Both the position numbers and the translations under genes were made by a program. The notes under the pieces were generated by a model. That model did no database searches and was not told where the DNA came from. It was given only the letters and a program-made list of their open reading frames with translations. From positions 1 to 63,254 of the IMG/VR virus record IMGVR_UViG_3300021403_000008: a DNA stretch of 63,254 bases; one strand, given 5' to 3'. The number at the start of each line of letters is the position of its first letter. Positions within the stretch are counted from its first letter, which is position 1. This document shows positions 6,631 through 63,244 of this stretch, in pieces. The DNA is from a virus. Lineage: Duplodnaviria > Caudoviricetes.

Positions 6631-6636
6631 ATTCCC

Positions 6637-7473: not shown

Positions 7474-7480
7474 GACTCTC

Positions 7481-8767
7481 CTACTTAGTTGCGAGCTTCT
7501 TTTCAACTGCCTTTATCCGGGCCGTGAGCTGCCCTATTGCGGTTAGGTCCGTAGCCGTCGCGTTAGCCGAATTCCCAATCGTCGGCACAACGGATATCTC
7601 CGGAGTCTGAGACGGGTCAGCCGTTAGCGTCACTCCGGTCACGACATCATTGTAGGTAACTCCCGGCCGGACTTCTACCGTCACGATATCGCCAAGATGG
7701 TAATCCCGGCCGAACGTCAGGAATGGGATATCGGTTGCGGTCACATTCATCGTTGGCCCGGCCGCTCCCGTCGCTATCGCCTGCTGGGCTGCGGTCGCGA
7801 GATTATTCGCATCCGTCTCCGAGGAATCGTCAATGAAGTTCTCCGTTAGATTCCACTGCGTCCGGTTAGTCGCCGTCCTCGATACAAAGTTGGTAGAGGT
7901 CCCCTGGACCAATGCGTCGGTTACGGTCGGGTCCGTTAGGGAAAGGCTGATAGCCGTAAGGTTACCTAGGCTCTCGGAGAACCAAGCCTTGCCGGAGAGG
8001 TCCCGTGGGACGTATACGTCAAAGATCATCCGGTGAGTCGATGGAACGCGAACGATAGAGACGCCCATAGCCGTCCCTGACTGAGCGATGAGAGCCCTAA
8101 TCACGTCGAGTAGGTTCAGGTCTACCCCGGAGCCGAACTTGACTGTATAGGACACGTTAGGGCCTCGCGTAAGGTTCGGCCCGATATCGAGCAGGTTATG
8201 CCTTCTGGCCGCGAGCGCTCCGGGTCCTAGGTTCCGGTTCACATAGTATTTGATCGCCGTCTCTAGCGGCTGAGCCGATACCGCATCGGTAGCTGCGGCC
8301 GTCTGCGAGGCCCACGCTACGGTCGGGTTGGGATAGGCAATCCGGTTCGCGACTAGCGCAAGGTAATCGCCTCCGGTCAGCGTAATGAATGGACCGGCGA
8401 ACTGGCCCTGTCCTCCGAACGAGCCCGGTATTGAATCGGAGTACTGAGGCTGTTCGCATTTCCCGCCGAAGGTAAAGAGGCCGCGCCAGTTCACATTGAC
8501 GAGGAAGTCTCCGGCCATCATGATATTCCAGAGCATGTCCGAATAGGGAACGAGGATAGTCCACGAGCCGACCGCATTGTAATAGAGCTGAGCCGATATG
8601 CTTATAAACTGAACGACTCCCTGGCTTACAAGATTGCTATTTAGTATCTCAACGAATATCTCATCGGAGGACCCGGCCGAAGGCGGCACAAAAGGAATTC
8701 CCGGCAGGAGGGTACCATCTCCACGGGTATAGTGCCGGGAGAAAGCGCTAACGGGAAGGACGGCCAT
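7481..8767 (-). CDS. Minor tail/baseplate hub protein (siphovirus Gp37-like)
   Basis: YNAVGSWTI and FGRDYHLGDIVTV motifs; follows Dit. Confidence 0.85.
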   Translation of the reverse strand: MAVLPVSAFSRHYTRGDGTLLPGIPFVPPSAGSSDEIFVEILNSNLVSQGVVQFISISAQLYYNAVGSWTILVPYSDMLWNIMMAGDFLVNVNWRGLFTFGGKCEQPQYSDSIPGSFGGQGQFAGPFITLTGGDYLALVANRIAYPNPTVAWASQTAAATDAVSAQPLETAIKYYVNRNLGPGALAARRHNLLDIGPNLTRGPNVSYTVKFGSGVDLNLLDVIRALIAQSGTAMGVSIVRVPSTHRMIFDVYVPRDLSGKAWFSESLGNLTAISLSLTDPTVTDALVQGTSTNFVSRTATNRTQWNLTENFIDDSSETDANNLATAAQQAIATGAAGPTMNVTATDIPFLTFGRDYHLGDIVTVEVRPGVTYNDVVTGVTLTADPSQTPEISVVPTIGNSANATATDLTAIGQLTARIKAVEKKLATK

Positions 8768-9657
8768 TATGCGCGGCTCCATCTAGCGGTCCAGGACAAT
8801 GTTACGGAAGTCGCGAGCGAGCTTCCGGCCATAGCAATACTCACCTGGTTATCTCCACCCATTAGGCCCCATAGGTCCCGGAGGGAAGAGAGTACAAGCG
8901 AGTCCCATATATTGGTCGCGGTCGTGACGTTATAGGCCATCTGCGTTCCGGGCTTAGTCTGAACCTGGACTACCTGCCCGGCCGGTACCGGCGCGTTGAG
9001 AGACCACTTCCGGCCCGTAGTTAGGTTCTGCATCGTGGGCGTACCGGGTCCGGTGATATTCCATATCGGATAGGCCGGAGCCGTCCCGGTATTCGTGATA
9101 ATGACGGAGCCGGTAACGGACCCGGCCGCGAGCCGTACAGGAAGCAGCGGGAGAATACCGGCCGCGTTGCTTATCGCAAAGGTCATCGAGCGCTGGTTCT
9201 GATCCGACCAGTACGGGTCCGGAGTCTGGAGCGTTAGCGCGTATACTGTATGATGAATTCCAACGTCCGGAGTATTGAGCCCGGAGGTCACATAGACGGC
9301 TATCTGCCGCGAGGTACCGTCCGGCCGCTCAATGACTAGGTATCCGGGAGCCGGAGCCTCTTTCCTCCGCGTCAGGAAAGCCCGCACGACCCTATCCAGG
9401 AGCTTGTAGTAATCGTTCTGGGTCCCGCCAATAGGAGTCCCTACAATGACGCCAAGCGCTATCGTTCCCGGCTGCGGAATGTATACGTCGGTAAAGGCCG
9501 TGCCGTCTAGGAGCGGGAGCGTCTGAATGGATACCGGGAGTCCTTCTATCCCGGCTATCCCGGTACACGCATACCCATTCGCCATCGTAAGGTCCGAAAG
9601 GTTCCAGTATCCTCCGTCCGGGTCCAGGTATCCAATCTGGAGCGGAGTAGTTGTCAT
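8767..9657 (-). CDS. Distal tail protein (Dit)
   Basis: LQTPDPYW, NTGTAPAYPIWNITGP, LMGGDNQV; directly after tape measure. Confidence 0.85.
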   Translation of the reverse strand: MTTTPLQIGYLDPDGGYWNLSDLTMANGYACTGIAGIEGLPVSIQTLPLLDGTAFTDVYIPQPGTIALGVIVGTPIGGTQNDYYKLLDRVVRAFLTRRKEAPAPGYLVIERPDGTSRQIAVYVTSGLNTPDVGIHHTVYALTLQTPDPYWSDQNQRSMTFAISNAAGILPLLPVRLAAGSVTGSVIITNTGTAPAYPIWNITGPGTPTMQNLTTGRKWSLNAPVPAGQVVQVQTKPGTQMAYNVTTATNIWDSLVLSSLRDLWGLMGGDNQVSIAMAGSSLATSVTLSWTARWSRA

Positions 9658-20218: not shown

Positions 20219-21768
20219 GGCGTACTCGTATCAGCCGGGACCGGAACGGCTCCGTTGGCCTGAGCGGGAGCGGGAGCCGGAGGCTGCCCGTTAGCCGCCG
20301 CGACTCCCGGAGGGACCGGAGGTGGGTTTACGGTTGCGGCTATGGCCTGCTGGACGAGTGCCTGCGCTTCCTCGCGCTGCTTCGCGAGCCGCCACGCCGC
20401 CACATCGTCGGCCGTGACTCCCGGAATCCTCGCCCACAGTTCCTCTTCCGGAACGCCAAGCATCTGAGCGGCCTTGGTTAGCCCGTCGATAGTCGCGCCA
20501 AAAGCACGAGCCGAAGTATCGCGCCACAGGACCGTCCCGAAGAGATCATTCCATCCCTTCTTGTCTCCGGATGCGAGAGCCGAGAGCCGGAACGTATTCC
20601 GCCACGGGTCCATTAGGAGTGCCTGTAGCTCTTCAACTTTCCGGTCTAGGCCATCCCGCGCAGCGGCTAGCGCTTCGGCCGATAGGTTCGCTATCTGGCC
20701 TAGAAGGTGATACGGAGGGACCTGAGAGATAGTTGACATATGCCGGATACCGTCCTCACGGACTCCGGAGTATGGCGCGAGCGCGGTCTCAGAGAAGTCT
20801 CCGAACTTGGTCCCAGGGTCCTCTGCCGAAAACATCCGGTCTACTCCCGGACGGAATGGCTGAGCCTCGCGGCCTTCCTCGTCCACCGGGCTCATCCCGG
20901 TAACCCACCGCTGTCGGAAGGCGGCGAACTGCTCCGATATCATGAGGTTGAACGTATCAAAATTAATCTGGTCCTGAAGCGGCATTAGCGGCTCGATTTC
21001 ACCGCTACAGTCATCCTCACCGTCTAGGTCGGCCTCATAGAGGAACCGGACGATGGGACATACTCCGAGACCGTGTTCCGCTATCGGGCTCTGGCCCATT
21101 AGCATTGGGTCGGCCGGGTCCGCTAGCTCCAGATTCAGATTCGAGGTCCGGCCGCTCCCGCCCACCTGGCCTGAGAGGATATACCGCATCATCTCGTCAT
21201 AAACCGAGACGTAAATGCGGGACCTCCCGCGAGGAAGGTTTATCATGCGGACCTCGACGGCGAACTGCGGCCATTCGTCATCGACGTCATCCGCGTAGAA
21301 GGCCGTGAGCCGTCGTGGGCTAACCGGCCGGATAACCGGAACGCTATCACCCTGGCGTTCCTCGTCCGTCGCCATCTGGCCCGGAAGCACGACGTTGTAC
21401 GCGGAGCCGTACTTGATGACCGACCTATGGACTCCGTGCTGCCGGGATATCATCCGGTTAGCCCGGAACGCATCCCACTCCGGCTCCGGAGTCTGCGGCA
21501 GGAGAGCCTGATTAGCCGTTGAGCCGGTCGGCCGGTATCCGTCCACATGGAGGTTCTGTGAGATAACCGAGATGATAAGCTTGAGGAAATTCCTCCGGGC
21601 CTTCCTGGCTATCCAGCGGTATTCCGCATTAACTCCCTTGGGCGTATATGGCGGGTCCTGCTTTCCTTTCACGTAGTCGCCAATACGCTGGAGCCGTCGC
21701 TGCTCCCGCTCGCGCTCCAGCATCGCCTGAGTCGTTAGCTGGACTAGCTCATCCGGGTCGATTATCAT
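20215..21768 (-). CDS. Portal protein (SPP1 Gp6-like)
   Basis: LGVCPIVRF, GEIEPL..QDQIN, AFRQRWVTG, NLSAEAL. Confidence 0.93.
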   Translation of the reverse strand: MIIDPDELVQLTTQAMLEREREQRRLQRIGDYVKGKQDPPYTPKGVNAEYRWIARKARRNFLKLIISVISQNLHVDGYRPTGSTANQALLPQTPEPEWDAFRANRMISRQHGVHRSVIKYGSAYNVVLPGQMATDEERQGDSVPVIRPVSPRRLTAFYADDVDDEWPQFAVEVRMINLPRGRSRIYVSVYDEMMRYILSGQVGGSGRTSNLNLELADPADPMLMGQSPIAEHGLGVCPIVRFLYEADLDGEDDCSGEIEPLMPLQDQINFDTFNLMISEQFAAFRQRWVTGMSPVDEEGREAQPFRPGVDRMFSAEDPGTKFGDFSETALAPYSGVREDGIRHMSTISQVPPYHLLGQIANLSAEALAAARDGLDRKVEELQALLMDPWRNTFRLSALASGDKKGWNDLFGTVLWRDTSARAFGATIDGLTKAAQMLGVPEEELWARIPGVTADDVAAWRLAKQREEAQALVQQAIAATVNPPPVPPGVAAANGQPPAPAPAQANGAVPVPADTSTP

Positions 21769-23447
21769 GAGTAGCTCCATACCTTCCGGCCGGACTTCTT
21801 CACCGCTGCCTCTTTCCGCTCTTTGTACTTCTTGGACGCGAGGACGAGACGGCGAGCATGCCTAGCCGTTATCATCGCCACGCAGGCGTCAATCTTATTG
21901 TGGCTCTTGGGCGATTCCTTGCCTATTGATATCCCATAGCGATTCGGACGGCGACGGGCATTAACTACGTGCCGGCCCATTACCGAATCGCCATCATGCT
22001 TAAATCCTCCGGGCTCTGCCTCTATCTCGCCCAGTACCATTTCGCACGCCTGGGTAAACTCCGCGACGTGAGACCGCATATCCCAGGCGACTGGCTGGGG
22101 GTCGCGTCCTCCGGGAACGGCCCACACGTCCAGCGTTTCCTCAAACCATTCACGCCAGGTAATCTTGGTCGACTGCTCCCATTCCTTTACGTCCGCAAAG
22201 AAGGCGCATACGTTGAACCTTTCCTTGGCCGCCGATATCGCCGCGTGTACCTCGTCCGCTGGGATATAGCGAGAGCCGCGCGGTTCCCATATCCCAAGGC
22301 TGAAGGTAAAGCCGCTCGCTATATGGCAGCCGACAAGAGCAGTCGCGTCCTCGACACGGCTTCCGTCGAATGCCATTGCTATATCGTCGCCGTCCTCGAT
22401 ATAGAAATTGGGGTCAGCGAGCCTGGCCCATAGCTGCTGAGTCGTCCAGGCATCCTCCGGGCTCTCCGGCCAGTTCAGGTAAAAGCGCTTGGATACGTCC
22501 AGCTTGGTACGCGGGCTCAGAATCCGGTTCTCAACAATGTCCTCCGGGTTGGCCCAGTAGCAGTCGCCGTAAGCGAATTCCACGGCCTTCCGGATAGAGC
22601 CGACGTCATCCCAGTCAATGTTAGGAGGCGCGAGCCTAGCATCATAGAGGATACGGCCTTTGCCTTTCAGCCGTCCTTCCTCCTGAGCCACCCACGCATC
22701 AAATGTACTCTCGGCTACGGATTCCTTTCCGGGCTCCCACGCATTGCTCGTCTCAAGGATTCGGTTGCCGGACTTACCGACGTTACGGTCCATAACGTCC
22801 GCAAGCGCTACTCCGCCATTGCTCGGATAGAATGATTCCGTCTGGTCGAGAATAGCAAAGGTAACAAGCGCGCCTTCCTCCGTTGTCGGACTCGACGTAA
22901 TTACCATTAGCTGCCCGCCGCCAGGAACGTGGAAAATAGTCTTCCCGGCCTCAACGTCGTAATCCTTCAAAATCCTCGAGTTTTTCGGCAGAAGAGCGCG
23001 GACCATTCGCATGGTATTGATATTGGCCTGATCGTGGCTAGTCGCGCCAATCTGGACCAATGGCATTGATACTTTCTTACCGACGCAGCCGCCTATCACA
23101 TTAGGGTCGTAATGGTCCAGCCGAACCGGAGCTAGCAATTCAATCATTGATAGCACGGCCGCGAACGGAGATTTGCCTGCGCCTTTCGGCCACCTCCGGA
23201 CTCCGTGGTAATAGACCCAGCGAGCGTAGTTAAGATTGATAAGCCGCTCGTCCGGGTCAAGCGCATACCACCACAGGATAAAGCGCACCTGGGACTCTAT
23301 GAATTCCCAGCGCTCTCCCGCATTCGGCCCGTCAGGCTGCCGGAGGTATTTGGAAGCCCAATGAATGGCTTCCCAGCCTAGCGTTAGGCTGGGAACACCT
23401 TCCGGCAGCGTGACGAGCCTATCCCTTGGTGCTAGGAGTGCTGGCAC
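21765..23447 (-). CDS. terL: Terminase large subunit
   Basis: KGAGKSP Walker A, AILDQ Walker B variant, FDGS..DATALV, KIDACVA. Confidence 0.95.
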   Translation of the reverse strand: MPALLAPRDRLVTLPEGVPSLTLGWEAIHWASKYLRQPDGPNAGERWEFIESQVRFILWWYALDPDERLINLNYARWVYYHGVRRWPKGAGKSPFAAVLSMIELLAPVRLDHYDPNVIGGCVGKKVSMPLVQIGATSHDQANINTMRMVRALLPKNSRILKDYDVEAGKTIFHVPGGGQLMVITSSPTTEEGALVTFAILDQTESFYPSNGGVALADVMDRNVGKSGNRILETSNAWEPGKESVAESTFDAWVAQEEGRLKGKGRILYDARLAPPNIDWDDVGSIRKAVEFAYGDCYWANPEDIVENRILSPRTKLDVSKRFYLNWPESPEDAWTTQQLWARLADPNFYIEDGDDIAMAFDGSRVEDATALVGCHIASGFTFSLGIWEPRGSRYIPADEVHAAISAAKERFNVCAFFADVKEWEQSTKITWREWFEETLDVWAVPGGRDPQPVAWDMRSHVAEFTQACEMVLGEIEAEPGGFKHDGDSVMGRHVVNARRRPNRYGISIGKESPKSHNKIDACVAMITARHARRLVLASKKYKERKEAAVKKSGRKVWSYS

Positions 23448-36977: not shown

Positions 36978-37724
36978 ATGAGTAACCACATTCAGCACCA
37001 GACCCAGGGCCTTCCCTTCCCAGAGAACCAGCCCGCTCCGGAGCCGCGAGGCGAGGCGAAGAATGACGGGCTTGCCGTCATGGCCCTGATCTTCGGCTGG
37101 ACCTTCTTTCCGGTCGGCCTGCTCTTCGGCCACATGAGCAACCACGCCGCGAAGCGAGCGAACCGCAGGCGTTCCGTCCTCGCCATCGTCGGCCTCGTGG
37201 GCGCGTACTGGTGGACGGTCGTGGTAGTCATCTTCATCGTCGCCGGTATCGCCGGAGGCGCAAGCGGGAGTCCTACGGTGGCTCCTACGGTCATCACGCC
37301 GTCCAGCGCCGCTCCGCTCGCGCCGGTCACGCCCAAGCCCGCTCCGGCCACTCCGGAGCCCGCGACGGCGACTCCGGCTCCGGCGACGGAAGCTCCGGCC
37401 GCTCCGGCAGCGCCGGTCATCTCCGCGAGCCAGGCGCAGGCTCTCGACTCCGCGAAGTCCTACCTCAGCCTGGGCACCGGCTTCAGCCGCGCCAAGCTGA
37501 TCGAGCAGCTGAAGTTTGAGAAGTTTTCGACGGCCGACGCCACATGGGCCGTGGACCACTCCGGAGCCGACTGGGACGCGCAGGCTGTCGAGTCCGCGCA
37601 GGGCTACACCAAGCTGGGTACCGGCTTCAGCCGTCAGTCGCTCATCGACCAGCTCACCAGCCCGTACGGCGAGCAGTACACGCAGGCCCAGGCGACGTAC
37701 GCGGCCGGGAAGGTCGGCCTGTAG
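36978..37724 (+). CDS. Ltp-family surface protein (putative superinfection exclusion)
   Basis: N-terminal TM helices, Pro/Ala linker, two repeats A..SA..Y....GFSR..LI.QL. Confidence 0.85.
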   Translation: MSNHIQHQTQGLPFPENQPAPEPRGEAKNDGLAVMALIFGWTFFPVGLLFGHMSNHAAKRANRRRSVLAIVGLVGAYWWTVVVVIFIVAGIAGGASGSPTVAPTVITPSSAAPLAPVTPKPAPATPEPATATPAPATEAPAAPAAPVISASQAQALDSAKSYLSLGTGFSRAKLIEQLKFEKFSTADATWAVDHSGADWDAQAVESAQGYTKLGTGFSRQSLIDQLTSPYGEQYTQAQATYAAGKVGL

Positions 37725-39224: not shown

Positions 39225-39764
39225 CTAGCCGGACTCTCCCCACTCGAATCGTGCGCGCCTCGCGCGCTCTAGGCCGTCCCTAGCCCAGTCCGGGACTCCG
39301 AACGGGAAGCCGCTCGTTAGGTGTTCTGTGATAACCGGCGACGGCTCTACGGCCACCCTAGGCCGCTTCATAGGGCAGCCGGAGCTATACGGGTCCCACG
39401 CTACGCCCCAGAGCTTCCCGTGGAAGTGAAGCTGGACAGGCCAGAGGACCGACTGTGGTCCGGGTACCTCTCCGAAGACAACGAGGTCATTCCCGTTACC
39501 GCATTTGGCTAGCGTCTCCGCAATGGCGCATAGCCGGTCGGCCGACTCTGTATTCAGGAATCCCTTTACTTCGGCCCACTGGCCGCATTCAAGATAGAAG
39601 TCAGGGAGATACCGGACGCGGCCGATTCGCGTACTCATCTCATATCCCTGACTCTCATAGAGCCAGGGAATCTGGCACTCATTGTAGAACACGGCCCAGC
39701 GCGCTTCTAGGCGCGACCGGAACCGATATCCGTCATAGCTCGTCTCGATAGCCTTTATCGTCAT
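39225..39764 (-). CDS. PD-(D/E)xK nuclease-like protein
   Basis: FRSRLEARWA...YE...YLPDFYL...EVKG. Confidence 0.8.
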   Translation of the reverse strand: MTIKAIETSYDGYRFRSRLEARWAVFYNECQIPWLYESQGYEMSTRIGRVRYLPDFYLECGQWAEVKGFLNTESADRLCAIAETLAKCGNGNDLVVFGEVPGPQSVLWPVQLHFHGKLWGVAWDPYSSGCPMKRPRVAVEPSPVITEHLTSGFPFGVPDWARDGLERARRARFEWGESG

Positions 39765-39815: not shown

Positions 39816-40322
39816 ATGAATCAGGGACGCATCACCAAGATCAGGAAGTATGTCCGGATAGCGGACGAGCACGAAGTCAAGGCTTCTGAGCACAACTGGA
39901 TGGCGGCAGAGCTTATCTGGGAAGAGATAGACTCCGGCACTCCCCAGAAGGAAATAGCCCAGGCCATCGGCAAGAGCGAGGCCCACGTCTCTTTCGTCAA
40001 GCGGTGCTGGCAGCTCCGCGTGGTCGATACCGGCCTAGAAGGCTTCGCCTTCGGTGACCTCGGTTCATTCTATGAGTTCTACAACTCGTCTCAGGTACGC
40101 GGCGAGTCGGCCGGAGGCGACCATGGTGGCGGCTCCGGCTCCGGCGACCGTCGTAAGCCGTCTGGCGACTATTCGGCCTCCGGCCTCGTCACCCAGGCCT
40201 ACACCGCCATAGACGCTCTCATCCGGGTACCCTCTCACCACGAGCTACTAACGGACGAGGACCTGGACCGGCTCCGGGAGCTTCCGGCCAGAATACGGGC
40301 TCTCCTGCGGACTATCGGCTAG
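39816..40322 (+). CDS. HTH DNA-binding protein (ParB-type HTH)
   Basis: TPQKEIAQAIGKSEAHVS; TATAAT at 39772. Confidence 0.75.
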   Translation: MNQGRITKIRKYVRIADEHEVKASEHNWMAAELIWEEIDSGTPQKEIAQAIGKSEAHVSFVKRCWQLRVVDTGLEGFAFGDLGSFYEFYNSSQVRGESAGGDHGGGSGSGDRRKPSGDYSASGLVTQAYTAIDALIRVPSHHELLTDEDLDRLRELPARIRALLRTIG

Positions 40323-40332
40323 CCGACCCGAC

Positions 40333-40490
40333 TACTGCGAGTATAGATTGTCGGCTTTGTCCGGACTAACTCCGAGTAATCGAAATTGGTTACTCCGAGT
40401 ATTACCGGCAGCTTATCCGAGTATTCCGGACCCGATTACTCCGCCAGCGGACAATTACCCCCAGTAATCGGGCTCGCTATTATCCGCTAC
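40333..40490. repeat. Array of quasi-palindromic TACT-CCG-AGTA repeats
   Basis: Copies at 40333, 40368, 40391, 40413, degenerate at 40437, 40456, 40480. Confidence 0.7.
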
Positions 40491-40574
40491 TGGCGCTAGG
40501 CTTCCCGACTAAGCGGCTCCGGCCGGAGATGCGACCTCCGCGCCGGAGCCTAGGAACCTACTAGGAGGCTCCCT

Positions 40575-41468
40575 ATGTCGGAGAATAACTCCGCGACCTC
40601 GCGGAGCGCGAGTATCGGCCGATTTATCCGGGCTGCGATTAAGAGGATTATTGGCGGCTTTCTCTGGCTCGTTGTCCTGGTCCCTATTCTCGGCGTGTCG
40701 GCTTACTCGCTTTACTTCATCGGCCGGTACCTCGGAGCGCCACCCTATATCGCCATCGCTTTCTCTACGTGTTTCGACGGCGTGGCGCTATTCGCGGCGC
40801 GTAAGTCCGTCGATTACGCCCAGGCCGGATTGTCCGGGAGCTTCCCGAAGCTCGTGGTGCGCCTGTTCGCGTTTATCGCCGCATTTCTCCAGACCTTCCA
40901 CGCGAAGATCGGCCACGAGCTACCGTGGTCGTGGGTCTTGTGGGCCAGCCTTCCTATCGGCGCGATGCTCGTCTATGAGATGCATATCCGGTGGGAACGT
41001 CGGAAGGCCCTGGCTCGCTCCGGGTCTATCTACCCAGCTCCGCTCCCTTCCTTCGGAATGATGAGCTGGGTCCTCTTCCCGCTCTCCACGCTTAGCAAGC
41101 TCCGGGACATAACCGAAGCGCGGCGTAACGCTCTCGTCACGGCCGCCAACATCGTAGTGGCCGACTTCCAGCGCGAGGCGAGCAAGGTACGGAATACCCG
41201 CGAGCGGCCGGAACCGGCCGCAGAAACCAGCGAGGAAGCCGCTCCGGCCGACGTAGCGCCACCGGAGGTCATCGCGGCGCATCGTGCGCGGCGTACGGCT
41301 CCGGCTAGCCGTCCGGCCTCCGGGACCTGGGAGGCTAAGCGGAAGCCCGACATTCATATCCGGGAATGGGCGCGAGCCCAGCCGGAGTACAAGGGCAGGG
41401 TAGGCGAGCGCGGCCGGGTCCCAGCCGATATCAAGGCAGCCTACAACGCACGGGAAGGTACCGGGTAA
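40575..41468 (+). CDS. DUF2637/SpdA-like membrane protein with C-terminal Lsr2-type DNA-binding domain
   Basis: Four TM helices; IREWARAQ...VGERGRVPADIKAAY. Confidence 0.75.
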   Translation: MSENNSATSRSASIGRFIRAAIKRIIGGFLWLVVLVPILGVSAYSLYFIGRYLGAPPYIAIAFSTCFDGVALFAARKSVDYAQAGLSGSFPKLVVRLFAFIAAFLQTFHAKIGHELPWSWVLWASLPIGAMLVYEMHIRWERRKALARSGSIYPAPLPSFGMMSWVLFPLSTLSKLRDITEARRNALVTAANIVVADFQREASKVRNTRERPEPAAETSEEAAPADVAPPEVIAAHRARRTAPASRPASGTWEAKRKPDIHIREWARAQPEYKGRVGERGRVPADIKAAYNAREGTG

Positions 41469-43138
41469 TGATCGCGGAAGGACTACGCGCGGTCCACGCT
41501 CCGGTATGGATCGTATTCGTCGTCATCTTCGGCCTTTACATCCTGACCGTAGGATGGTGGATGCTTAACGGATACACGCGCGAGCTATTCGGCTCCCCGC
41601 TCCCGCATATGGGCCGGATTCATAAGGTGGTATATAACTTCCACACGGGCCTTCCCGTCAAGAACATGAAGTCTCATGGAGACGGCCGGCACCTCAAGAA
41701 GGTAGCGGGCTCCACGAGCCGTGCGACTCCGGAAGGCGCGACCGTCTATTTCACGCCGTGGAAGCGTTGGCAGCGGGCTCTCCGGAATAACGCCATCATT
41801 ATCATCTGGCTTCTCTCGTCCTGCGGAATGGCGATAGACCCTAAGAACACCGTCCGGGCTATGACGCTCCTGCTCTTCCTCGGAGCTATCGGCCTAGTTG
41901 CCCTACTCGTCCGGAGGAAGCGCGAGCTGGTCAGAAGGTCGCGCCCGGTATCCCGGCCGGCCATCGCCATGACTAAGCCCGCTAAGAACGTCCTAGAAGC
42001 CGACATACTAACCCTAGGCCGGAGGCCGAAGCTAGAAATTGAGGAAGCTCCCCAGCTGGAAGGCGTTGCGCCTTCCGTCCTCGCTAGCCTCCTATCGAGC
42101 CGACTGGGCGTGAGCGCGGCTGAAGTCATGACCCGGCTCCGGATGAGTTCGGAGTCCGGGAGCCTCGTCCTTCCCGATACGTATGCGGCGCTGAAGAAGG
42201 ACCGTGAGACGATTGAGGAAGTCATCGAGGCCCACACCGATGGCAAGGTCCGGTTCGCCTGGAAGACTACGGCTACGCCTCGCGTCCTAGAATGGTATCC
42301 GGTCAAGGTGCCGGTCCTCCCGACCAAGGTCCGTTTCCGGGACCACCTAGACGAGCTAGAGCGGCTAGGAGCCCGTGAGACCGGCCTTGGCCTCCGGGCC
42401 GACAAGTCGCTATACATTCAGAGCCATAACGGCGACCTTCCGTGGTGGTGCCGGTTCATGGGCTCCGGTACCGGGAAGTCTATGAGCTTCCTCGTCAAGG
42501 CCGCGCAGATAGCGCACAAGGACCCGCGAGCCGAGATTCACTGCTTTGATACCAAGCAGGTATCTTTCGAGGCTCTCCACGGAATTCCCGGAATCCATAT
42601 CTATGACAACCCGGTTACCGAGATGGATAAAATCTGGACCGGGCTCTACTCGATTGCCGGCCTGATCGAGTCCCGGTATACGGCTGTCCGTGAGAAGCGT
42701 AAGAAGCTAGAGGAATTCGATGACGTCTGGGTATTCGCGGATGAAGGGAATGACCTAGGCGACCGGCTCAAGACCCACTGGACCAAGACAATGGGCGAGT
42801 CGAGCGCGAGCCCGGCTATCTGGCCCGAAGCTATCGCCGCCATGCTCCGGCAGGGAAGGCAGGCGCGCGTATTCGGAGAGTGGATGTTCCAGGACCTTAC
42901 TGACCGGGCTATGGGCGGCCAGTCCCTCAAGTTCGCATTCGGAGGATTCTGTGCGGCCGGATTCCTTCCCAATCAGTTTGTCCGGACGATTGGTGCTCCG
43001 GCCGAAGAGTGCCTAGAAGGCCCTGGGCGTATACTTGTATGTCAAGGGAACAAGCGTACGTGGACTCAGGGCTTCTACGATGATGAGCAATGGCTCCACG
43101 ACTACGCGCTAGAGAACAGAAGGGAAATGGCGGCATGA
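41468..43138 (+). CDS. FtsK/SpoIIIE-like (TraB-type) membrane ATPase
   Basis: N-terminal TMs; GSGTGKS, CFDTK, VFADE, LRQGRQAR arginine finger, Q sensor, GPGR. Confidence 0.8.
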   Translation: MIAEGLRAVHAPVWIVFVVIFGLYILTVGWWMLNGYTRELFGSPLPHMGRIHKVVYNFHTGLPVKNMKSHGDGRHLKKVAGSTSRATPEGATVYFTPWKRWQRALRNNAIIIIWLLSSCGMAIDPKNTVRAMTLLLFLGAIGLVALLVRRKRELVRRSRPVSRPAIAMTKPAKNVLEADILTLGRRPKLEIEEAPQLEGVAPSVLASLLSSRLGVSAAEVMTRLRMSSESGSLVLPDTYAALKKDRETIEEVIEAHTDGKVRFAWKTTATPRVLEWYPVKVPVLPTKVRFRDHLDELERLGARETGLGLRADKSLYIQSHNGDLPWWCRFMGSGTGKSMSFLVKAAQIAHKDPRAEIHCFDTKQVSFEALHGIPGIHIYDNPVTEMDKIWTGLYSIAGLIESRYTAVREKRKKLEEFDDVWVFADEGNDLGDRLKTHWTKTMGESSASPAIWPEAIAAMLRQGRQARVFGEWMFQDLTDRAMGGQSLKFAFGGFCAAGFLPNQFVRTIGAPAEECLEGPGRILVCQGNKRTWTQGFYDDEQWLHDYALENRREMAA

Positions 43139-43578
43139 TTGGGAAGTATGCGAACTGGTGCCGGAAGCGAGGACGGACGGCGAACTGCTCTCCGGTTCTC
43201 GGAGTCCTCGCCATCCTAGTGGTGGCGGCCGTGACGGTCTACGTGTACCGGGAGGTAATCCTCCAGACTCTGCTGACGGCTCTACTCGCCATCGCAGCCG
43301 TCTGCGCCATCGTGGCCCTAGGAGCCCTGACGCTCTCGACGGTCCAGTGGTACCGGAGGCGAGCCCGGAAGCTCGCAGCGGCCACTACGGCTCCGGCCGT
43401 CGAGGAAGTCCAGGACACGCCCAACTGGCCGGCCAAGGACGCGGCCGACTGGGCGATGAACAAGCCGTCCACGGACGTGGACGAGGCGGCCATCTCGGAG
43501 GAAGCCGACTGGCTAGCCTCCGGCGTGGAGCTGGCGTTCGGCCCGGACGGCAAGCTGAAGGCCAAGGGAGGAAGCTAG
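43135..43578 (+). CDS. Two-TM membrane protein
   Basis: ATGA overlap with ATPase gene. Confidence 0.7.
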   Translation: MIGKYANWCRKRGRTANCSPVLGVLAILVVAAVTVYVYREVILQTLLTALLAIAAVCAIVALGALTLSTVQWYRRRARKLAAATTAPAVEEVQDTPNWPAKDAADWAMNKPSTDVDEAAISEEADWLASGVELAFGPDGKLKAKGGS

Positions 43579-43579
43579 C

Positions 43580-43798
43580 ATGCGCGCGGTGGCCGTGACC
43601 CTCGTCCTCCTAGCCGTCCCGCTAGGACACCAGGTCATCGGCCACCGCGTCCATCTCCGGCTGCTCCGTCGATACGCTCCCCTAACTCCCCACGAGCTAC
43701 GTCACGCGACCCGGAGCCGTCCTCTCCGGCTCGCGGCTGACGGAGCCTGGCTCGCTTACCTCGCGGGTGTCCTCGTCCTCGCGCTCTGCCTCCGCTGA
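43580..43798 (+). CDS. Small membrane protein
   Basis: GGAGG RBS; hydrophobic ends. Confidence 0.55.
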   Translation: MRAVAVTLVLLAVPLGHQVIGHRVHLRLLRRYAPLTPHELRHATRSRPLRLAADGAWLAYLAGVLVLALCLR

Positions 43799-49790: not shown

Positions 49791-50627
49791 ATGGGTGTCG
49801 TCTATATCCCGACCATGGGACGGCCGGCCAACGTCCGGAAGATCGTGCCGAAGTGGCTGGACCAGAATATGTCCGTCCGGCTAGTCGTGAATACGGACGA
49901 GGTCAATACTCATCTCGCCGTCCGCGCCCAGGAAGGCTGGGGCTCCGACGTACGGGTCTGGGCTCCGCCAGGAGTCCGTGGCATCGGAGCTATCCGGCGC
50001 AAGATCGTACGGCAGGCCGCGAGGAACGGCCTCAACGCCATAGTCCTTTCCGAGGACGATGCGATACCGGAGCGGAAGTCTGATTTCCACGATCTGCTCG
50101 ACTGGGCCGAACGGCCGGACGTTCTAGGCATCGGCGCGACCCGGCCAATCCACGACCGCTTCACCGGAGGCGCAATCTCCAATAACTCCGGCGCTATCCT
50201 GTGCCCCGGAGGATGGGGCTTTGTCTGCTTCGCGCTTAACGTCCCGAATGCGATCGCAGCCGGCAATTACGATGCGGCTCTCCATACGATCGGAGACGAT
50301 GCGGAGCTAGCGCGGAACGGCATCGCGAAACTCCGGATTCCGTGGCTCGCCCATTGTGACGTCCGGTGGTCCGCTATCGGTACCCGGTACTCAGCCGGAG
50401 GGATCAATGCGCGCTTCGGAGAGGACGAGGTGAAGCGCCACGCGGCCGAACGGGAGTGTATGGAGATAATCCACGAGCGGTGGCCGGCCTACACGAACCG
50501 GCCAGATCAGCGGCTCCGGGTATCCTGGCAGAAGATGCTGGACGACTACATACCCGGCTGGCGCGCCCGGAGCGCTCTCCACGGAGGCGACCTCGCGGCC
50601 GACTACCGGGAAGAGGCCACGATATGA
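49791..50627 (+). CDS. GT-A fold glycosyltransferase (TET-associated type)
   Basis: YIPTMGRP, GIGAIRRKI, SEDD DxD-like motif, GDDAEL, GG before C-terminal helix. Confidence 0.75.
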   Translation: MGVVYIPTMGRPANVRKIVPKWLDQNMSVRLVVNTDEVNTHLAVRAQEGWGSDVRVWAPPGVRGIGAIRRKIVRQAARNGLNAIVLSEDDAIPERKSDFHDLLDWAERPDVLGIGATRPIHDRFTGGAISNNSGAILCPGGWGFVCFALNVPNAIAAGNYDAALHTIGDDAELARNGIAKLRIPWLAHCDVRWSAIGTRYSAGGINARFGEDEVKRHAAERECMEIIHERWPAYTNRPDQRLRVSWQKMLDDYIPGWRARSALHGGDLAADYREEATI

Positions 50628-58019: not shown

Positions 58020-58853
58020 ATGCGCGTCCTCATTCTAGGGTGCGGTCCTTCCGGGCTAGCCGCCGCTCAGGCCGCTCTCGACTTCGGAGCCGACCCATTC
58101 ATCATAAGCAAGACTGACCGGCCGTCCATGCTCTACGGCTGCCAGTACCTCCACGAGCCCATCCCCGGATATGAGAACGTTCCCAGCACAACCGTCTCCT
58201 ATGCGCTCATCGGCACTCCGGATCAGTACCGTGAGAAGGTCTATGGCGATAAGTGGACCGGGAAGGTTAGCCCGGAGGACTTTGTAGGCGAGCACAACGC
58301 CTGGGATATCCGCGAGACGTACGGACGGCTATGGGCCGACCTCATTGGCTCCAGCCGCGTCTCCCTCTTTGTCAGGGGAGAGATAACCGAAGGCTGGATT
58401 CCTACCGCCATGGGTCCTCCGCCATTCCTCATCATTTCCTCGATACCTGCTCCGGCGATGTGTACCAAGCGAAGCGTCCACGGCTTCTACTCGCACGCTA
58501 TCTTCGCGAACGGTACGACCAACGAGGAACCTATCCACGACAACGCCATTCTCTGCGACGGGACCGACGCTCACCGGTGGTACCGGATATCGAACGTGTT
58601 CGGCTACCGGACGATTGAATGGGCGAAGCTCCCGCCTCCGGGAACCATCGCCGCGAACGTCATCAAGCCGCTCCGGACGGACTGCGACTGCTACCCGTCC
58701 GTCCTTCGCGTAGGCCGCTACGGGACATGGGACAAGAGCTACCTAGTCCACAAGGTCTACGGAGACGTTATCGACGCTCTACGGGCCACTCAGAGCCCGG
58801 CAGAGTACGTTGCGGACTACCTAGACGAGCGTAAGGGACCGTGGCGGATGTGA
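58020..58853 (+). CDS. FAD-binding oxidoreductase (UDP-galactopyranose mutase-like fold)
   Basis: ILGCGPSGLAAA Rossmann motif, GCQYLH, WYRIS, VGRYGTW. Confidence 0.75.
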   Translation: MRVLILGCGPSGLAAAQAALDFGADPFIISKTDRPSMLYGCQYLHEPIPGYENVPSTTVSYALIGTPDQYREKVYGDKWTGKVSPEDFVGEHNAWDIRETYGRLWADLIGSSRVSLFVRGEITEGWIPTAMGPPPFLIISSIPAPAMCTKRSVHGFYSHAIFANGTTNEEPIHDNAILCDGTDAHRWYRISNVFGYRTIEWAKLPPPGTIAANVIKPLRTDCDCYPSVLRVGRYGTWDKSYLVHKVYGDVIDALRATQSPAEYVADYLDERKGPWRM

Positions 58854-59644
58854 GCTGGGAGACGGAGTGCGGCAGCGGATTCCATACGGGATGGTGCCGC
58901 CATAAAGTCACCGGGAAGGTCTACCTGAGAGCGGGAGCGATGACGGACATTAGGGCCAGCGTAAGCGGCGGCATTTTCGAGTACCCGGCCGAAGTAATAC
59001 TCAGCCGCGCCAACCGTCCTATCGTCGCGCTTGATATCGACGGGACGCTGGGAGATTACCACAAGCACTTCCTCTGGTTCGCGGAGCTATGGTTTGGCCG
59101 GCCGTTCCCTCCGCCAGACGAGGTCAACCCCGGACTCCGGCTATCCACGTTCATGGGAATCCCTCACCGGGACTACCGGGAGTGTAAGCTCGCATACCGC
59201 CAGAGCGGCCTGAAGCGGGCCATGCCGTGCTATCCGTACGCGAGCGAGCTTACCCGCAACATCCGCAAATCCGGAGCCGACGTATGGATTTGTACTTCCC
59301 GGCCATATCTCCGGCTAGACAACATAGACCCGGATACGCGGGAATGGCTCCGTAGGAACGGGATTCAGTATGATGGCCTAATCTGGGAGAGTATCCCGGA
59401 CGGCGACCAGACCTGCGGGAAATACAATGACCTCGTGAACCAGGTCGGCCTTAGCCGTATCGTCGCGGTAGTCGATGACCTCCCGGAGCAGACGGCCGAC
59501 GCGGAGCGGCTAGGTATCCTTAATATCTACGTCCGGGATCAGCCGTATAACCGGGAGCCGCACGTACGCGGCGACCGGATAACGGACCTCTCTACGCTCT
59601 GGGAATGCCTAGAGCAGGATATATCACAATGGAGGAATAAATGA
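58841..59644 (+). CDS. HAD-family nucleotidase (start may be 58940)
   Basis: ALDIDGTL, ICTSRP, TREWL, VDD, PYN. Confidence 0.8.
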   Translation: MADVSWETECGSGFHTGWCRHKVTGKVYLRAGAMTDIRASVSGGIFEYPAEVILSRANRPIVALDIDGTLGDYHKHFLWFAELWFGRPFPPPDEVNPGLRLSTFMGIPHRDYRECKLAYRQSGLKRAMPCYPYASELTRNIRKSGADVWICTSRPYLRLDNIDPDTREWLRRNGIQYDGLIWESIPDGDQTCGKYNDLVNQVGLSRIVAVVDDLPEQTADAERLGILNIYVRDQPYNREPHVRGDRITDLSTLWECLEQDISQWRNK

Positions 59645-60543
59645 GTACCTACGGAGATATGCCGCACAGGACCGTCGAGAGGTATGTGGATGAGGCGATG
59701 TTCCCGGCCGTGCCGCTCTCGGAGTACGGAGAGGAAGTCCGGCCGTCCGTCACGGTCATTACGATGACCCCGGACCCGCTCCGGGTCCTCGCGTCTGCCG
59801 CCTCGATGTACAAGGGACTCCCGGTACTCCCAGAAGACATATCCGCCGAAGAGGCGGTGGCCTATCTCGATGCCTTCCGTGGCGGGAAGATCGTTGCGCC
59901 ACTCGAATGGATTCAGATAGCGCTCCTGATCCAGGGAGTCTCCCGCGACTTCACCCATCAGATGGTCCGGCAGAGGACGGCGACATTCGTCCAGGAGTCG
60001 ATGCGGTTCGCGGTAAAGGACAACGCCGCGAACGAGGTGCCGATGCCTCCGTCTATCGCGAGGCTCCCGGACAACAGCGATATCGTCCAGAGGTGGCGGG
60101 AGCACGTAATCAGCACCGGCCAGTTCTATAACTACCTCATTCAGAACGATATCCCGGCAGAGGACGCGCGGAAAGCTCTACTCATCGGAACGGCTACCCG
60201 GCTCCATTACCGGACGGACCTCCGGAACCTCGTGAATACGGCCGGGATGCGGCTGTGCTCTCAAGCCCAGGCCGAATGGAAGCAGGTCTGGCTAGAGATA
60301 GTCGGAGCCATCCTGAATTACGGGCCGGACGAGGAACGCTGGCAGCAGCGGGAGATAGTCTCCCTATTCAAGCCCGTATGCTACCAGACCGGGAAGTGCG
60401 AATTCAATAGCCCCATCGATCGGTGGTGTGTTATCCGGGACCGCGTCAACGCCCACGCGGAACGAGGCGAGCCGCCTACGGTCTGGCTCGATATCAGCCC
60501 GCACGAGCCGCTCCATCCGGCTTCGGCCCGGAGGCCACGATGA
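59641..60543 (+). CDS. thyX: ThyX-like flavin-dependent thymidylate synthase
   Basis: GVSRDFTHQMVRQRTATFVQESMRF, PAEDAR, RLCSQAQAEW. Confidence 0.85.
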   Translation: MSTYGDMPHRTVERYVDEAMFPAVPLSEYGEEVRPSVTVITMTPDPLRVLASAASMYKGLPVLPEDISAEEAVAYLDAFRGGKIVAPLEWIQIALLIQGVSRDFTHQMVRQRTATFVQESMRFAVKDNAANEVPMPPSIARLPDNSDIVQRWREHVISTGQFYNYLIQNDIPAEDARKALLIGTATRLHYRTDLRNLVNTAGMRLCSQAQAEWKQVWLEIVGAILNYGPDEERWQQREIVSLFKPVCYQTGKCEFNSPIDRWCVIRDRVNAHAERGEPPTVWLDISPHEPLHPASARRPR

Positions 60544-62074: not shown

Positions 62075-62294
62075 CCGATGGATTCAGGATAAGGAAGGCC
62101 TGTGGTGGGAGCTAATGCCTGCCGGGCCTTTCCCGGAGCCGCGCGAGCTAACCCCGGAGGAACGGCTAGAAGCCGCGACTAACTACCTGAAGAACCGGCT
62201 CGCGCTCAAGATAGACAAGCTCTACGTCCAGGCCGGTCGGTTCCAGTCCTATGTCGGGACTACTCCCGATGACTTTACGGACGGCCTCCGGTAA
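62064..62294 (+). CDS. Hypothetical protein
   Basis: GGAGG RBS; TAATG overlap with PHP gene. Confidence 0.6.
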   Translation: MDGSRWIQDKEGLWWELMPAGPFPEPRELTPEERLEAATNYLKNRLALKIDKLYVQAGRFQSYVGTTPDDFTDGLR

Positions 62295-63244
62295 TGGGAG
62301 AGCTAGCGCGGCGAGTCCGGTTCGTTAACCTACACGGCCATTCAACATTCTCTTTCGGAGACGGGTACGGACCTCCCTCCGCGCACGTCGCGAGAGCGGC
62401 CGGACTTGGCTATACCGCGCTAGCCCTAACCGAGCACGGTAACGTATCGAGTCACTATCAGCTAGAAGCGGCCGCAGTCAAGGCCGGCATTCAGCCTATC
62501 TTCGGCCTGGAGGCTTATACCGGAGCCGTGGACCTAGAGCACCGCCAGCAATTCAAGTTCCATCTGACTATTCTCGCGGAGACAGCGAATGGATACCAGA
62601 ACCTCAACAAAGTCGTCACCCAGTCCTATAAGGACGCATACTACCACCCTACGGTCAGCGGTAGTTATCTCAGCGCCCACTCTAGCGGGCTTGTCGTTCT
62701 TTCTGGATGTTCCGGGAGCCTTCTGGCTTGTACGCTCCTGGGCGGAAAGGGAATCCCGGAACCGGATACCGGAGTCTACAACTGGAACGGAGCGCTAGAA
62801 GTAGTCGAGAGGTTCAAGTCCCATTTCGGTGATAGGTACTTCCTAGAAGTCCAGCCTTTCTGGGAGCTGGAGCGCTCGTGCTTTATGAATCCGGCCTATG
62901 AGGAACTGAGCCGGATGACCGGAGTGCCGCTAGTCGTTACCCACGATATCCATTACCCGCTCCCGGAGGACGCAGAGATGCAAGCTATTCTCCACGCGGT
63001 CCATCGCGGGAAGGCGAGTATTGATGACGCGCTCCGGGAATGGAATTACGAGGTGGCGATGACCTTCCCGGACGGAGACGCTATACTCGGAGAGAAGCTA
63101 ATGAAGACCGGCCTTAGCCGGGAAGCCTCGTGGGAGGCTATCCTGACTACGGAGCGGATAGCCGGAATGTGTAAGGTGAAGCTACCGAAGGCCAAACGTC
63201 TCCGGTACCCAATATCCCAGCAGGACATTCAGCCGTGGAGCTAG
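62294..63244 (+). CDS. dnaE: DnaE N-terminal PHP domain as a separate gene
   Basis: LHGHSTFSFGDG, ALTEHGN, GLEAY, HLTILA...GYQNL, LSGC, THDIHY. Confidence 0.92.
   Translation: MGELARRVRFVNLHGHSTFSFGDGYGPPSAHVARAAGLGYTALALTEHGNVSSHYQLEAAAVKAGIQPIFGLEAYTGAVDLEHRQQFKFHLTILAETANGYQNLNKVVTQSYKDAYYHPTVSGSYLSAHSSGLVVLSGCSGSLLACTLLGGKGIPEPDTGVYNWNGALEVVERFKSHFGDRYFLEVQPFWELERSCFMNPAYEELSRMTGVPLVVTHDIHYPLPEDAEMQAILHAVHRGKASIDDALREWNYEVAMTFPDGDAILGEKLMKTGLSREASWEAILTTERIAGMCKVKLPKAKRLRYPISQQDIQPWS

Follow-up and report, generated by a model that had tools for sequence, protein, structure and literature searches.

A DUF2637-Lsr2 membrane protein and a winged-helix-less FtsK-like ATPase in an uncultured tailed phage, and their relatives on Streptomyces plasmids

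The DNA translocases FtsK and TraB carry a C-terminal winged helix that lets them read specific 8-bp sites, which for TraB are the clt repeats. In the conjugative plasmids of Streptomyces TraB alone suffices for transfer, while the spd genes lie in translationally coupled operons; one of their products, SpdB2, is an oligomeric membrane protein with four transmembrane (TM) segments that binds double-stranded DNA (dsDNA) non-specifically, forms pores and co-purifies with TraB, and TraR provides the Kor function (excerpts of Thoma et al. 2015, PMC4447253). We hereby describe a locus that resembles these systems in a complete tailed phage, IMG/VR virus record IMGVR_UViG_3300021403_000008, of which the whole record (63,254 bp, the window) was analyzed. 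The module, at positions 39816-43798, contains, besides a gene for a helical protein of DNA-binding type, a 9-bp motif that occurs five times, a GC hairpin and four tightly coupled genes, which include a DUF2637 membrane protein with an Lsr2-type tail and an FtsK-like ATPase.

Proteins of plasmid spread type have already been considered in phages. Homologues of SpdB2 in the actinophages phiC31 and VWB, which like the locus studied here bring a plasmid spread-type membrane protein into a phage, were proposed to help the spread of phage DNA, and the idea itself is thus not new (excerpts of Thoma et al. 2015, PMC4447253). FtsK-like, Lsr2-like and ParB genes are also present in Streptomyces phages, where the portions available of the corresponding reports assign them no function (PMC11536984, 10.1101/2024.02.16.580700, PMC13587820, PMC10117723). 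In the full-text literature no experimental test of phage DNA spreading was found, and DUF2637 is named in only two papers, neither of which deals with this subject.

The likeness to the TraB/Spd systems of pSVH1 and pIJ101 consists of a membrane FtsK-like motor, an operon of translationally coupled membrane proteins with one 4-TM DNA-binding member, an adjacent gene of repressor type and the presence of short repeats. The differences are several: no similarity of sequence could be detected between the phage ATPase and pIJ101 Tra, and the former lacks a C-terminal winged helix, whereas pIJ101 Tra has a MarR-like one at residues 594-631; the DUF2637 family does not match SpdA; the putative regulator is not of GntR type; and the carrier is a virion-forming phage in which no integrase was recognised. 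With FtsK and SpoIIIE the ATPase shares the motor fold, an N-terminal membrane anchor and the Walker A and B motifs, but it has neither the gamma (winged-helix) domain nor the long linker, and shows instead three membrane segments and a conserved basic loop. What is new is a distinct winged-helix-less FtsK-like motor combined with a DUF2637-Lsr2 fusion, fixed in an uncultured actinophage lineage and shared in kind with Streptomyces plasmids.

The ATPase and its membrane partner

Homologues of the ATPase are nearly all 546-578 residues long, most of them 550-563, and for this reason its start is placed at 41468 and not at the longest open reading frame (ORF) start at 41366. The protein contains a Walker A motif (GSGTGKS, residues 333-339) and a Walker B motif (DEGN, 425-428), and residues G334, G336, K337, D425 and E426 are invariant in 37 aligned sequences. 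By itself the window protein matched nothing in Pfam (E up to 0.1), PHROGs (E up to 0.01) or NCBIfam, a search of the record for PF01580 gave no match, and phmmer against PDB sequences returned only spurious zinc-finger matches; the profile of its family found a single weak PDB sequence match, EccCb1 (E 0.25). PF01580 matches 20 of the 37 aligned homologues (E up to 0.01, best 9.9e-7).

An AlphaFold2 (AF2) model of the ATPase, built on the alignment of homologues, reached a mean predicted local distance difference test (pLDDT) score of 83.0. Compared with PDB structures by Foldseek it gave 79 matches with E up to 1e-3, the best being FtsK motor structures (6t8o, 6t8g, 6t8b and 2ius, E 7e-13 to 1e-11, probability 1.00), with complexes of the motor and DNA at 7e-13 to 4e-12. 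The clostridial conjugation coupling protein TcpA matched at 9e-12 and the type VII secretion ATPases EccC and EssC at 1.5e-9 and weaker. Among models of viral proteins the top matches were phage proteins named DNA translocase FtsK (E 6e-15). On these grounds, namely PF01580 in homologues, invariant Walker residues, the predicted model and its structural matches, the assignment of the protein to the FtsK-like ATPases holds.

Hydropathy indicates three N-terminal segments in the ATPase (residues 13-29, 109-125 and 132-148). Between the first two lies a loop (residues 30-108, positions 41555-41791) with 13 Lys/Arg and 3 Asp/Glu, in which G35, H59, G61, R106 and N107 are invariant; the number of segments and the basic character of the loop place both the loop and the motor in the cytoplasm. 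At the other end the chain stops about 15 residues after the last motor strand, which leaves no place for a winged helix. The basic loop could be a DNA-binding or partner-binding element that replaces the absent C-terminal domain.

The partner of the ATPase is the DUF2637-Lsr2 protein, whose gene opens the operon. Its hydropathy profile shows four strong hydrophobic segments and a weak one, and the N-terminus is basic; from this pattern both ends of the protein should be cytoplasmic, and the Lsr2-type tail is thus predicted to face the cytoplasm. The DUF2637 model of Pfam (PF10935) scores the window protein below its cut-off (E 1.1e-3, 19.4 bits against 22.8), phrog_10376 matches it at 2e-27, and many homologues bear PF10935. 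The tail matches PF23359 with E 4.7e-6 and 26.3 bits, 0.6 under the cut-off of 26.9, and is matched by Lsr2-like PHROGs. When the last 52 residues were compared with PDB sequences, only three matches were obtained, all of them Lsr2 DNA-binding domains (6qkq, 6qkp and 2kng, E 1.1e-3 to 1.6e-3), with the Arg-Gly-Arg motif that contacts DNA aligned. All 31 aligned homologues retain the Lsr2-like block, in which W265 never varies, and to judge from these sequences the Lsr2 tail is real.

A relationship of this protein to plasmid Spd proteins was also looked for. Its assignment as SpdA-like was rejected, because the DUF2637 family profile reaches pIJ101 SpdA only at E 2.5. The same profile gave a weak match to pIJ101 SpdB (15.6 bits, E 9e-6 in a set of 24 sequences), a protein that itself has no Pfam DUF2637 match at E up to 0.05. 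In phiC31 the profile found nothing at E up to 1, and that phage has no annotated FtsK-like gene.

The four genes follow one another with almost no room between them. The stop codon of the DUF2637-Lsr2 gene and the start codon of the ATPase gene share one base (TAATG, 41466-41470), the stop of the ATPase and the start of the 147-residue protein overlap by four bases (ATGA, 43135-43138), and a single base separates the stop of the latter gene (43578) from the start of the gene for the 72-residue protein (43580). The operon opens a long rightward block of genes that runs on into replication genes. A complex prediction for the ATPase with the DUF2637-Lsr2 protein scored 0.00 and carries no verdict either way.

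These results can be set against a previous description of the module (the sequence-only reading), which was made without database searches. The gene positions it gave were confirmed from the sequence, and the translationally coupled operon it described can be read directly in the overlapping and abutting starts and stops. Its DUF2637 protein with four TM segments and an Lsr2-type tail agrees with the hydropathy, with phrog_10376 and PF23359 and with the PDB matches to Lsr2; its membrane FtsK-like ATPase ending right after the motor agrees with the three N-terminal segments, the FtsK-motor fold and the PF01580 matches of homologues, and the structure prediction it had proposed as a check places the ATPase model closest to FtsK motor structures. 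Its two small membrane proteins each have two hydrophobic segments by hydropathy. The SpdA likeness had to be abandoned. The coordinates of all the features are collected in Table 1.

Table 1. Features of the module and of its left neighbour (positions in the 63,254-bp window)
Feature	Position	Strand	Basis or detail
Endonuclease/Holliday-junction-resolvase-like gene	39225..39764	-	phrog_21138 E 2.3e-30; phrog_9019 (Holliday junction resolvase) E 3.8e-6
168-aa all-helical protein, candidate KorB/ParB-type helix-turn-helix (HTH)	39816..40322	+	profile, model
Cluster of five CCGAGTAWT copies (9 bp)	40372..40468	.	motif count
GC-rich hairpin	40515..40550	+	minimum free energy -30.2 kcal/mol, z -4.64, 0 of 200 shuffles as stable
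297-aa integral membrane protein: DUF2637, low-complexity linker, C-terminal Lsr2-type domain (~258-292)	40575..41468	+	
556-aa membrane-anchored FtsK/SpoIIIE-superfamily ATPase	41468..43138	+	motor ~200-556
147-aa protein: basic N-terminus, 2-TM hairpin, acidic C-terminal tail of ~85 aa	43135..43578	+	hydropathy
72-aa protein: two hydrophobic segments with a basic loop between	43580..43798	+	hydropathy

Relatives in viral contigs, plasmids and cultured phages

A large sequence collection contains 82 ATPase-like proteins and 91 homologues of the DUF2637-Lsr2 protein, and many of both are encoded on contigs of 54-72 kb. A search of 1.84 billion cluster representatives with the ATPase returned 211 with E up to 1e-3, so that the clade of the ATPase is narrow. 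Scans of viral contigs with two distant ATPase representatives gave no loci. In the 50,697 phage records searched, no match was found to the module by megablast or to the ATPase by tblastn (E up to 1e-3).

The module is conserved in 14 related viral contigs, in which the order endonuclease, HTH gene, spacer, DUF2637 gene, ATPase and TM protein is the same as far as the flanks reach. The ATPase is present in all 14, with 42-68% identity, and so is the DUF2637(-Lsr2) gene, which in two of them is cut by the contig end. The 147-residue protein directly follows the ATPase in 13 of the 14 and the 72-residue protein was recovered in three (L003, L010 and L013), both by tblastn. Twelve loci have enough upstream flank, but L011 and L012 are near-identical copies and the distinct relatives with such a flank are 11. 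The endonuclease-like gene is found on the minus strand in 12 of these 12 loci and the HTH gene in 11. The exception is L010 (3333-4024): about 150 bp lie between its divergent endonuclease gene and its DUF2637 gene, and both the HTH gene and the repeat region are missing from it; these two elements are therefore dispensable for keeping the operon.

Outside the viral contigs, relatives of the ATPase are found on plasmids. In 72,556 plasmid records tblastn matched 37, of which 35 are from Streptomyces, one from Pseudonocardia and one from Planobispora. Six plasmid loci were inspected: four of them have a DUF2637-like gene ahead of that for the ATPase homologue, and a gene associated with conjugation (a GntR regulator, a TcpC-like or "conjugal transfer protein", or pRL2-8) lies near it in five. 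VirB4-like genes also occur beside plasmid DUF2637/ATPase pairs. For example, the 34-kb Streptomyces plasmid NZ_CP109008.1 has a divergent GntR regulator, a DUF2637 protein (Pfam 1.3e-11), an ORF of 77 residues, a 598-residue ATPase with an overlapping start and then a protein of 177 residues, a layout that corresponds to that of the phage operon; the same plasmid (locus L032, 1-22100) also carries a full type IV set with a VirB4-like protein, a coupling protein, a "conjugal transfer protein" and an NlpC/P60 protein. On two large linear plasmids the DUF2637 gene and the ATPase gene are followed by a TcpC-like "conjugal transfer protein", a short FtsK-like gene and a large ATP-binding protein. 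The Pseudonocardia locus has an upstream protein of 458 residues that is weakly DUF2637-like, and one inspected plasmid has a group II intron gene upstream of the ATPase. In the 18-kb plasmid NZ_CP108050.1 an 828-residue ATPase follows a different "conjugal transfer protein", and it is the sole FtsK-like gene listed there, in plasmid gene tables that are incomplete.

With the pairs of NZ_CP109008.1, NZ_CP117710.1 and NZ_CP109056.1 (and with the ATPase alone of NZ_CP108050.1) the phage operon shares homology of both main genes and their order. The ATPases of these plasmids score E 1.8e-37 to 1e-50 with the family profile, while for the six plasmid ATPases together the range is 6e-24 to 1e-50; the DUF2637 profile scores the protein of NZ_CP109008.1 at E 2e-8, and in a search of three plasmid records it matched one. 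The plasmid proteins differ from those of the phage: the ATPases have 135-220 additional C-terminal residues and shorter N-terminal parts, with 27-31% identity to the window ATPase over the motor; the DUF2637 proteins have no Lsr2 domain in Pfam, unlike the phage fusion; and the regulator is a divergent gene of GntR type, whereas the gene upstream of the phage operon is neither of this type nor divergent from the operon.

The family profile meets pIJ101 Tra only at E 0.035 (3.0 bits) and Escherichia coli FtsK, to which similarity is marginal, at E 0.075; by BLASTP the window ATPase finds three plasmid proteins at 1e-26, 1.6e-24 and 1e-18, against 7.0 for pIJ101 Tra. A tree of the motor region (58 rows; a quick method under LG+G4, with support only from the Shimodaira-Hasegawa-like approximate likelihood ratio test, SH-aLRT) was built from 13 of the 37 family sequences (every third), 37 of 150 listed representatives, the six plasmid proteins, pIJ101 Tra and E. 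coli FtsK, leaving out two fragmentary representatives and an FtsK-like protein of 270 residues. In this tree the phage ATPase family is one clade (SH-aLRT 100) within a clade of 56 rows (99) that contains all six plasmid ATPases, and pIJ101 Tra and E. coli FtsK fall outside on long branches, a pairing that the program flags as unreliable. The relatives nearest to the phage family likewise end at the motor. As a consequence, the plasmid connection drawn by the sequence-only reading is retained in part: relatives of the ATPase and of the DUF2637 protein do occur on Streptomyces conjugative plasmids and the phage ATPase family groups with the plasmid ATPases in the phylogeny that had been suggested as a check, but it stands apart from pIJ101 Tra and a relationship to TraB did not emerge.

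From sequence comparison, then, both main genes are homologous to a gene pair of conjugative plasmids, and a distinct clade of FtsK-like ATPases paired with DUF2637 proteins is common to Streptomyces conjugative plasmids and to an uncultured phage lineage (about 80 proteins).

Cultured phages contain translocases of a different kind. With pIJ101 Tra as the query, tblastn found 260 phage records, the best being that of Streptomyces phage Geonosis, with 45.6% identity over 83% of Tra. In Geonosis (locus L030, PP750866.1) a plus-strand ORF at 5746-7803 encodes at least 686 residues with 45% identity to pIJ101 Tra and is still open where the linear record stops; it is unannotated and three minus-strand calls named "hypothetical protein" overlie the region. 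Upstream of it lies Geonosis_00068, a gene similar to that of the "conjugal transfer protein" found ahead of the ATPase on NZ_CP108050.1. This Tra homologue and its upstream gene mean that plasmid-type translocase modules in tailed actinophages are not new as sequences. The FtsK/TraB-like genes of Geonosis, of other cultured phages and of Mycobacterium and Bacillus phages share with the window ATPase a tailed phage as carrier and membership in the FtsK superfamily; the window ATPase differs from genes of the Geonosis type in belonging to another clade, having its own DUF2637-Lsr2 partner and lacking a C-terminal domain.

DUF2637-like proteins are also encoded by other elements. LilMartin gp32 matches the DUF2637 family profile at 1.6e-36 and passes the Pfam threshold at 25 bits. 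A 34,477-bp circular "plasmid" of Streptomyces sp. NBC_01335 (L019, NZ_CP108372.1) encodes a DUF2637-like protein of 340 residues (family profile E 1.4e-22); it also has a terminase, a portal protein and a primase-polymerase, and seems to be a phage, or a phage-plasmid, that has been catalogued as a plasmid.

The upstream region and the phage

Between the conserved endonuclease-like gene, which is the divergent left neighbour of the module and whose start is likely the Met at 39764 and not the longest-ORF start at 39986, and the operon lies the gene for the 168-residue protein. This protein has no match in Pfam, PHROGs, NCBIfam or PADLOC, and hence none to the GntR type. A profile of its family (11 homologues) searched against the PDB gave the HTH of KorB as the best match, weakly (E 0.038 and 0.047 over 30 residues); the AF2 model (pLDDT 86.2) is helical throughout, and its top Foldseek matches are ParB DNA-binding domains with E of 0.6 or more (best 0.64), none reaching 1e-3. 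Homologues are 27-49% identical, so that the protein is conserved yet fast-evolving, less conserved than its neighbours. In L007 (3385-4005) the homologue reads about 45 residues further into the spacer, a difference that could be genuine or result from a sequencing error. The protein is likely, though not proven, to be an HTH DNA binder and a candidate regulator of the operon, on the basis of profile and model.

In the spacer of 252 bp between this gene and the operon, three exact copies of CCGAGTAWT are found at 40372-40425 in direct orientation, spaced by 23 and 22 bp, and they are the only exact copies in the window. The two remaining copies of the cluster are an inverted one and a direct one with one mismatch. 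When one mismatch is allowed the window contains 35 matches, against about 25 expected, and five of the 35 fall within the 97 bp of the cluster. The GC content of the region is about 0.50, a value that places it among the 1% of 150-bp windows poorest in GC. No array is called here by Tandem Repeats Finder, and the copies are better described as short sites, similar to operators or iterons; they are candidate binding sites for the 168-residue protein. Most of the related loci that have the spacer also have clusters of short motifs at the equivalent place, with different motifs, a situation that fits co-evolution with the variable upstream protein.

The hairpin is located 25 bp before the start codon of the operon and is not followed by a run of T. 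At the equivalent place a hairpin with z of -3.2 or lower was found in 8 of 12 folded loci (the window included), three being weak and one having none; the stem sequences differ from locus to locus and could not be aligned by MAFFT, and these hairpins were assessed by single-sequence folds with shuffles and no formal covariation count. A scan for promoter and terminator consensus found nothing in the spacer. The hairpin would be part of the 5' leader of the operon, or a terminator or attenuator without the U-run. Two elements of the sequence-only reading have accordingly to be reworded: for its "HTH gene" an all-helical gene of DNA-binding type is present, while the HTH identity comes through the weak KorB and the non-significant ParB matches, and for its "repeat array" the motif cluster is present, whereas the status of an array is not.

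The record that carries the module is about 98% complete and has no end repeats. It encodes a large terminase (21765-23447, minus strand), a tape measure protein (9657-12296, minus strand), portal, head protease, major head and minor tail proteins and an endolysin, together with a DnaE-type DNA polymerase, a primase-polymerase and a helicase for replication, and with a PD-(D/E)XK nuclease, an AAA_24 ATPase, ThyX and an Ltp-type lipoprotein. The element is thus a complete tailed phage, as the sequence-only reading had it. The likeness to an actinomycete integrative and conjugative element (AICE) was not borne out: among the 48 ORFs scanned with Pfam or PHROGs, some small ORFs being outside the scan, no integrase, recombinase, excisionase or partition ATPase family was found. 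For the same reason an AICE or a prophage was rejected, and the element is a virion-forming phage. When the genomes of 185,579 species, one per species, were scanned with a pattern from the ATPase alignment, no relative turned up. From these two negative results the phage looks virulent, or at least non-integrating.

The terminase matched 2019 phage records by tblastn, and the ten commonest names listed among the matches are all of actinobacterial hosts or actinophage genera (Mycobacterium 1346, Gordonia 227, Streptomyces 207 and others), the top matches being Corynebacterium phages with 47-48% identity. An actinobacterial host is therefore well supported by sequence similarity.

Other observations on the record concern its ends and its remaining genes. 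A PHP domain protein at the right end (62294-63244) and the DnaE-type polymerase at the left end (1019-3328) are both on the plus strand, and an ORF at 3-593 is open at its 5' end. As the PHP and polymerase parts lie at opposite ends, the record seems to have been cut within the replication module, and its ends are probably not the physical ends of the genome. An Ltp-type membrane protein with two repeats (36978-37724, plus strand, PF07553 E 1.9e-28) is encoded about 2 kb upstream of the module; the family of Ltp-type lipoproteins is known from superinfection exclusion. A weak match to a TET-associated glycosyltransferase (49791-50627, E 7.8e-5, under the cut-off), a 5'-nucleotidase-like protein (58841-59644) and ThyX (59641-60543) together hint at nucleotide or DNA modification. 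The scan for tRNAs found none and that of Rfam gave no significant match.

Possible roles of the operon

It seems to us slightly the better bet that the operon encodes, in general terms, a membrane complex for DNA translocation. More specifically, by analogy with the plasmids, there is an even chance that it is a membrane-embedded machine for handling dsDNA, of the same type as the transfer and spread systems of Streptomyces plasmids. This reading draws on the Lsr2 tail kept in all the aligned homologues, on the motor fold, on the coupled operon and on the plasmid pair. We suggest, with much more reserve, that the purpose could be to carry replicating phage DNA through the cross-walls of hyphae, or into compartments or hyphae nearby, without virions. 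The proposal in its full form, in which apparently virulent phages of mycelial actinomycetes would push naked replicating genomes through cross-walls or fused hyphae by means of a plasmid-derived winged-helix-less pump and its Lsr2 partner, is more speculative again and, taken as a whole, rather improbable.

In such a mechanism, by analogy with FtsK and TraB, the ATPase would form a ring held in the membrane by its three helices and would pump dsDNA at the expense of ATP. It would have lost, or would never have had, the C-terminal winged-helix reader. The capture of DNA could then be supplied in trans by the DUF2637-Lsr2 partner, whose Lsr2 domain would bind AT-rich DNA with low specificity, comparably to SpdB2, and which may both form the membrane passage and hold the DNA in place of a reader domain; a contact between the two proteins is presumed. 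The two small membrane proteins may be accessory subunits, like the small Spd proteins. The 168-residue KorB/ParB-like protein, the five sites and the leader hairpin most likely control a potentially toxic membrane operon, in the manner of Kor. A role of these upstream elements as the cis site on which the pump acts is less likely, since L010 keeps the operon in the absence of the HTH gene and the repeat cluster; the same absence weakens the case for the cluster as a cis site that the pump requires.

Several considerations weigh against transfer and spread. Since similarity to TraB is not detectable, the analogy is one of fold, architecture and context. To the Spd proteins there is a weak link, with 15.6 bits to SpdB, no Pfam DUF2637 in SpdB itself and no match in phiC31. 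DUF2637 proteins are also found in Streptomyces phages of about 130 kb, and LilMartin, the sole one whose neighbourhood was inspected, has no annotated FtsK-like gene within about 5 kb, so that DUF2637 may not need such a motor. In the predicted model the fold of the ATPase is as close to TcpA and EccC, which handle relaxase-bound single-stranded DNA or proteins, as to FtsK. The plasmid DUF2637 and ATPase pair is itself uncharacterised, and on NZ_CP109008.1 it is an additional DNA-handling module beside the plasmid's own coupling protein. The reading also presupposes a host that grows as a mycelium. Finally, a phage with a complete set of virion and lysis genes has no need for another route.

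Among other explanations, the same architecture, a cytoplasmic motor at the membrane with a non-specific DNA binder, would also suit genome entry: encoded on the DNA that enters first, the operon would reel in the remaining genome across the thick envelope of actinobacteria. For T5 and phi29 a two-step entry is known in which early phage proteins are required, a motor loading on an entering DNA end would need no sequence-specific reader, and the operon starts the rightward block that leads into the replication genes. We consider this unlikely, because the DNA would already be threaded when the ring assembles around it, and the homologous plasmid pair beside conjugation genes does not fit unless it acts there in DNA uptake. 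A comparably small chance is given to a role in exclusion or defence, by blocking or expelling superinfecting DNA, or in the manipulation of host segregation, septation or sporulation. Early membrane proteins are typical exclusion factors and the Ltp-type gene is nearby. Moreover, FtsK-like, ParB and Lsr2-like phage genes are listed as possible manipulators of Streptomyces development in the portions available of three reports (PMC10117723, PMC13587820, 10.1101/2024.02.16.580700). None of the five module proteins matched PADLOC models at E up to 0.01, however, and a defence system as such was rejected on this ground; the strict synteny and the conservation across 14 divergent relatives look more like a core function, and a DNA-binding domain on the membrane partner suits the handling of DNA.

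The operon might also anchor and partition phage DNA without transporting it, with the DUF2637-Lsr2 protein as a tether, the ATPase resolving and segregating concatemers as FtsK resolves and segregates chromosomes, and the ParB/KorB-like protein with its sites as a centromere-like element. The weak ParB/KorB-type signal followed by a cluster of putative sites, the Lsr2 domain on a membrane protein and the common transcription direction with the replication genes would agree with it, but no ParA-type partner was found in the ORFs scanned, L010 keeps the operon without HTH gene or sites, and the plasmid relatives adjoin transfer genes and not the one ParA gene seen; this explanation is accordingly improbable to a greater degree. 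Protein export, in which the ATPase would work on a phage protein like a type VII (EccC/EssC) or coupling-protein ATPase, has very little in its favour: EccC, EssC and TcpA are among the significant fold matches, from 1.5e-9 to 9e-12, and EccCb1 is the one PDB sequence that the family profile weakly recognises, but the top fold matches are FtsK motors on DNA, the partner has a DNA-binding domain, type VII ATPases are multi-domain whereas here there is one ATPase domain, and no substrate gene is evident.

If the operon does move phage DNA between hyphal compartments, it would represent a cell-to-cell route for a virus in multicellular bacteria, comparable to the spreading of plasmids and to the movement of plant viruses through plasmodesmata. 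One adsorption would then seed many compartments before virions are made, the virus would spread both as particles and as conjugation-like DNA, and this would bear on the growth and containment of plaques in Streptomyces lawns. Independently of spread, DUF2637 gains a context that can be tested, and actinophages gain a second and independent plasmid-type translocase module beside the TraB homologue of Geonosis. In the fusion of Lsr2 to a membrane protein one may also see, in compact form, how a motor without a reader domain of its own receives DNA recognition in trans.

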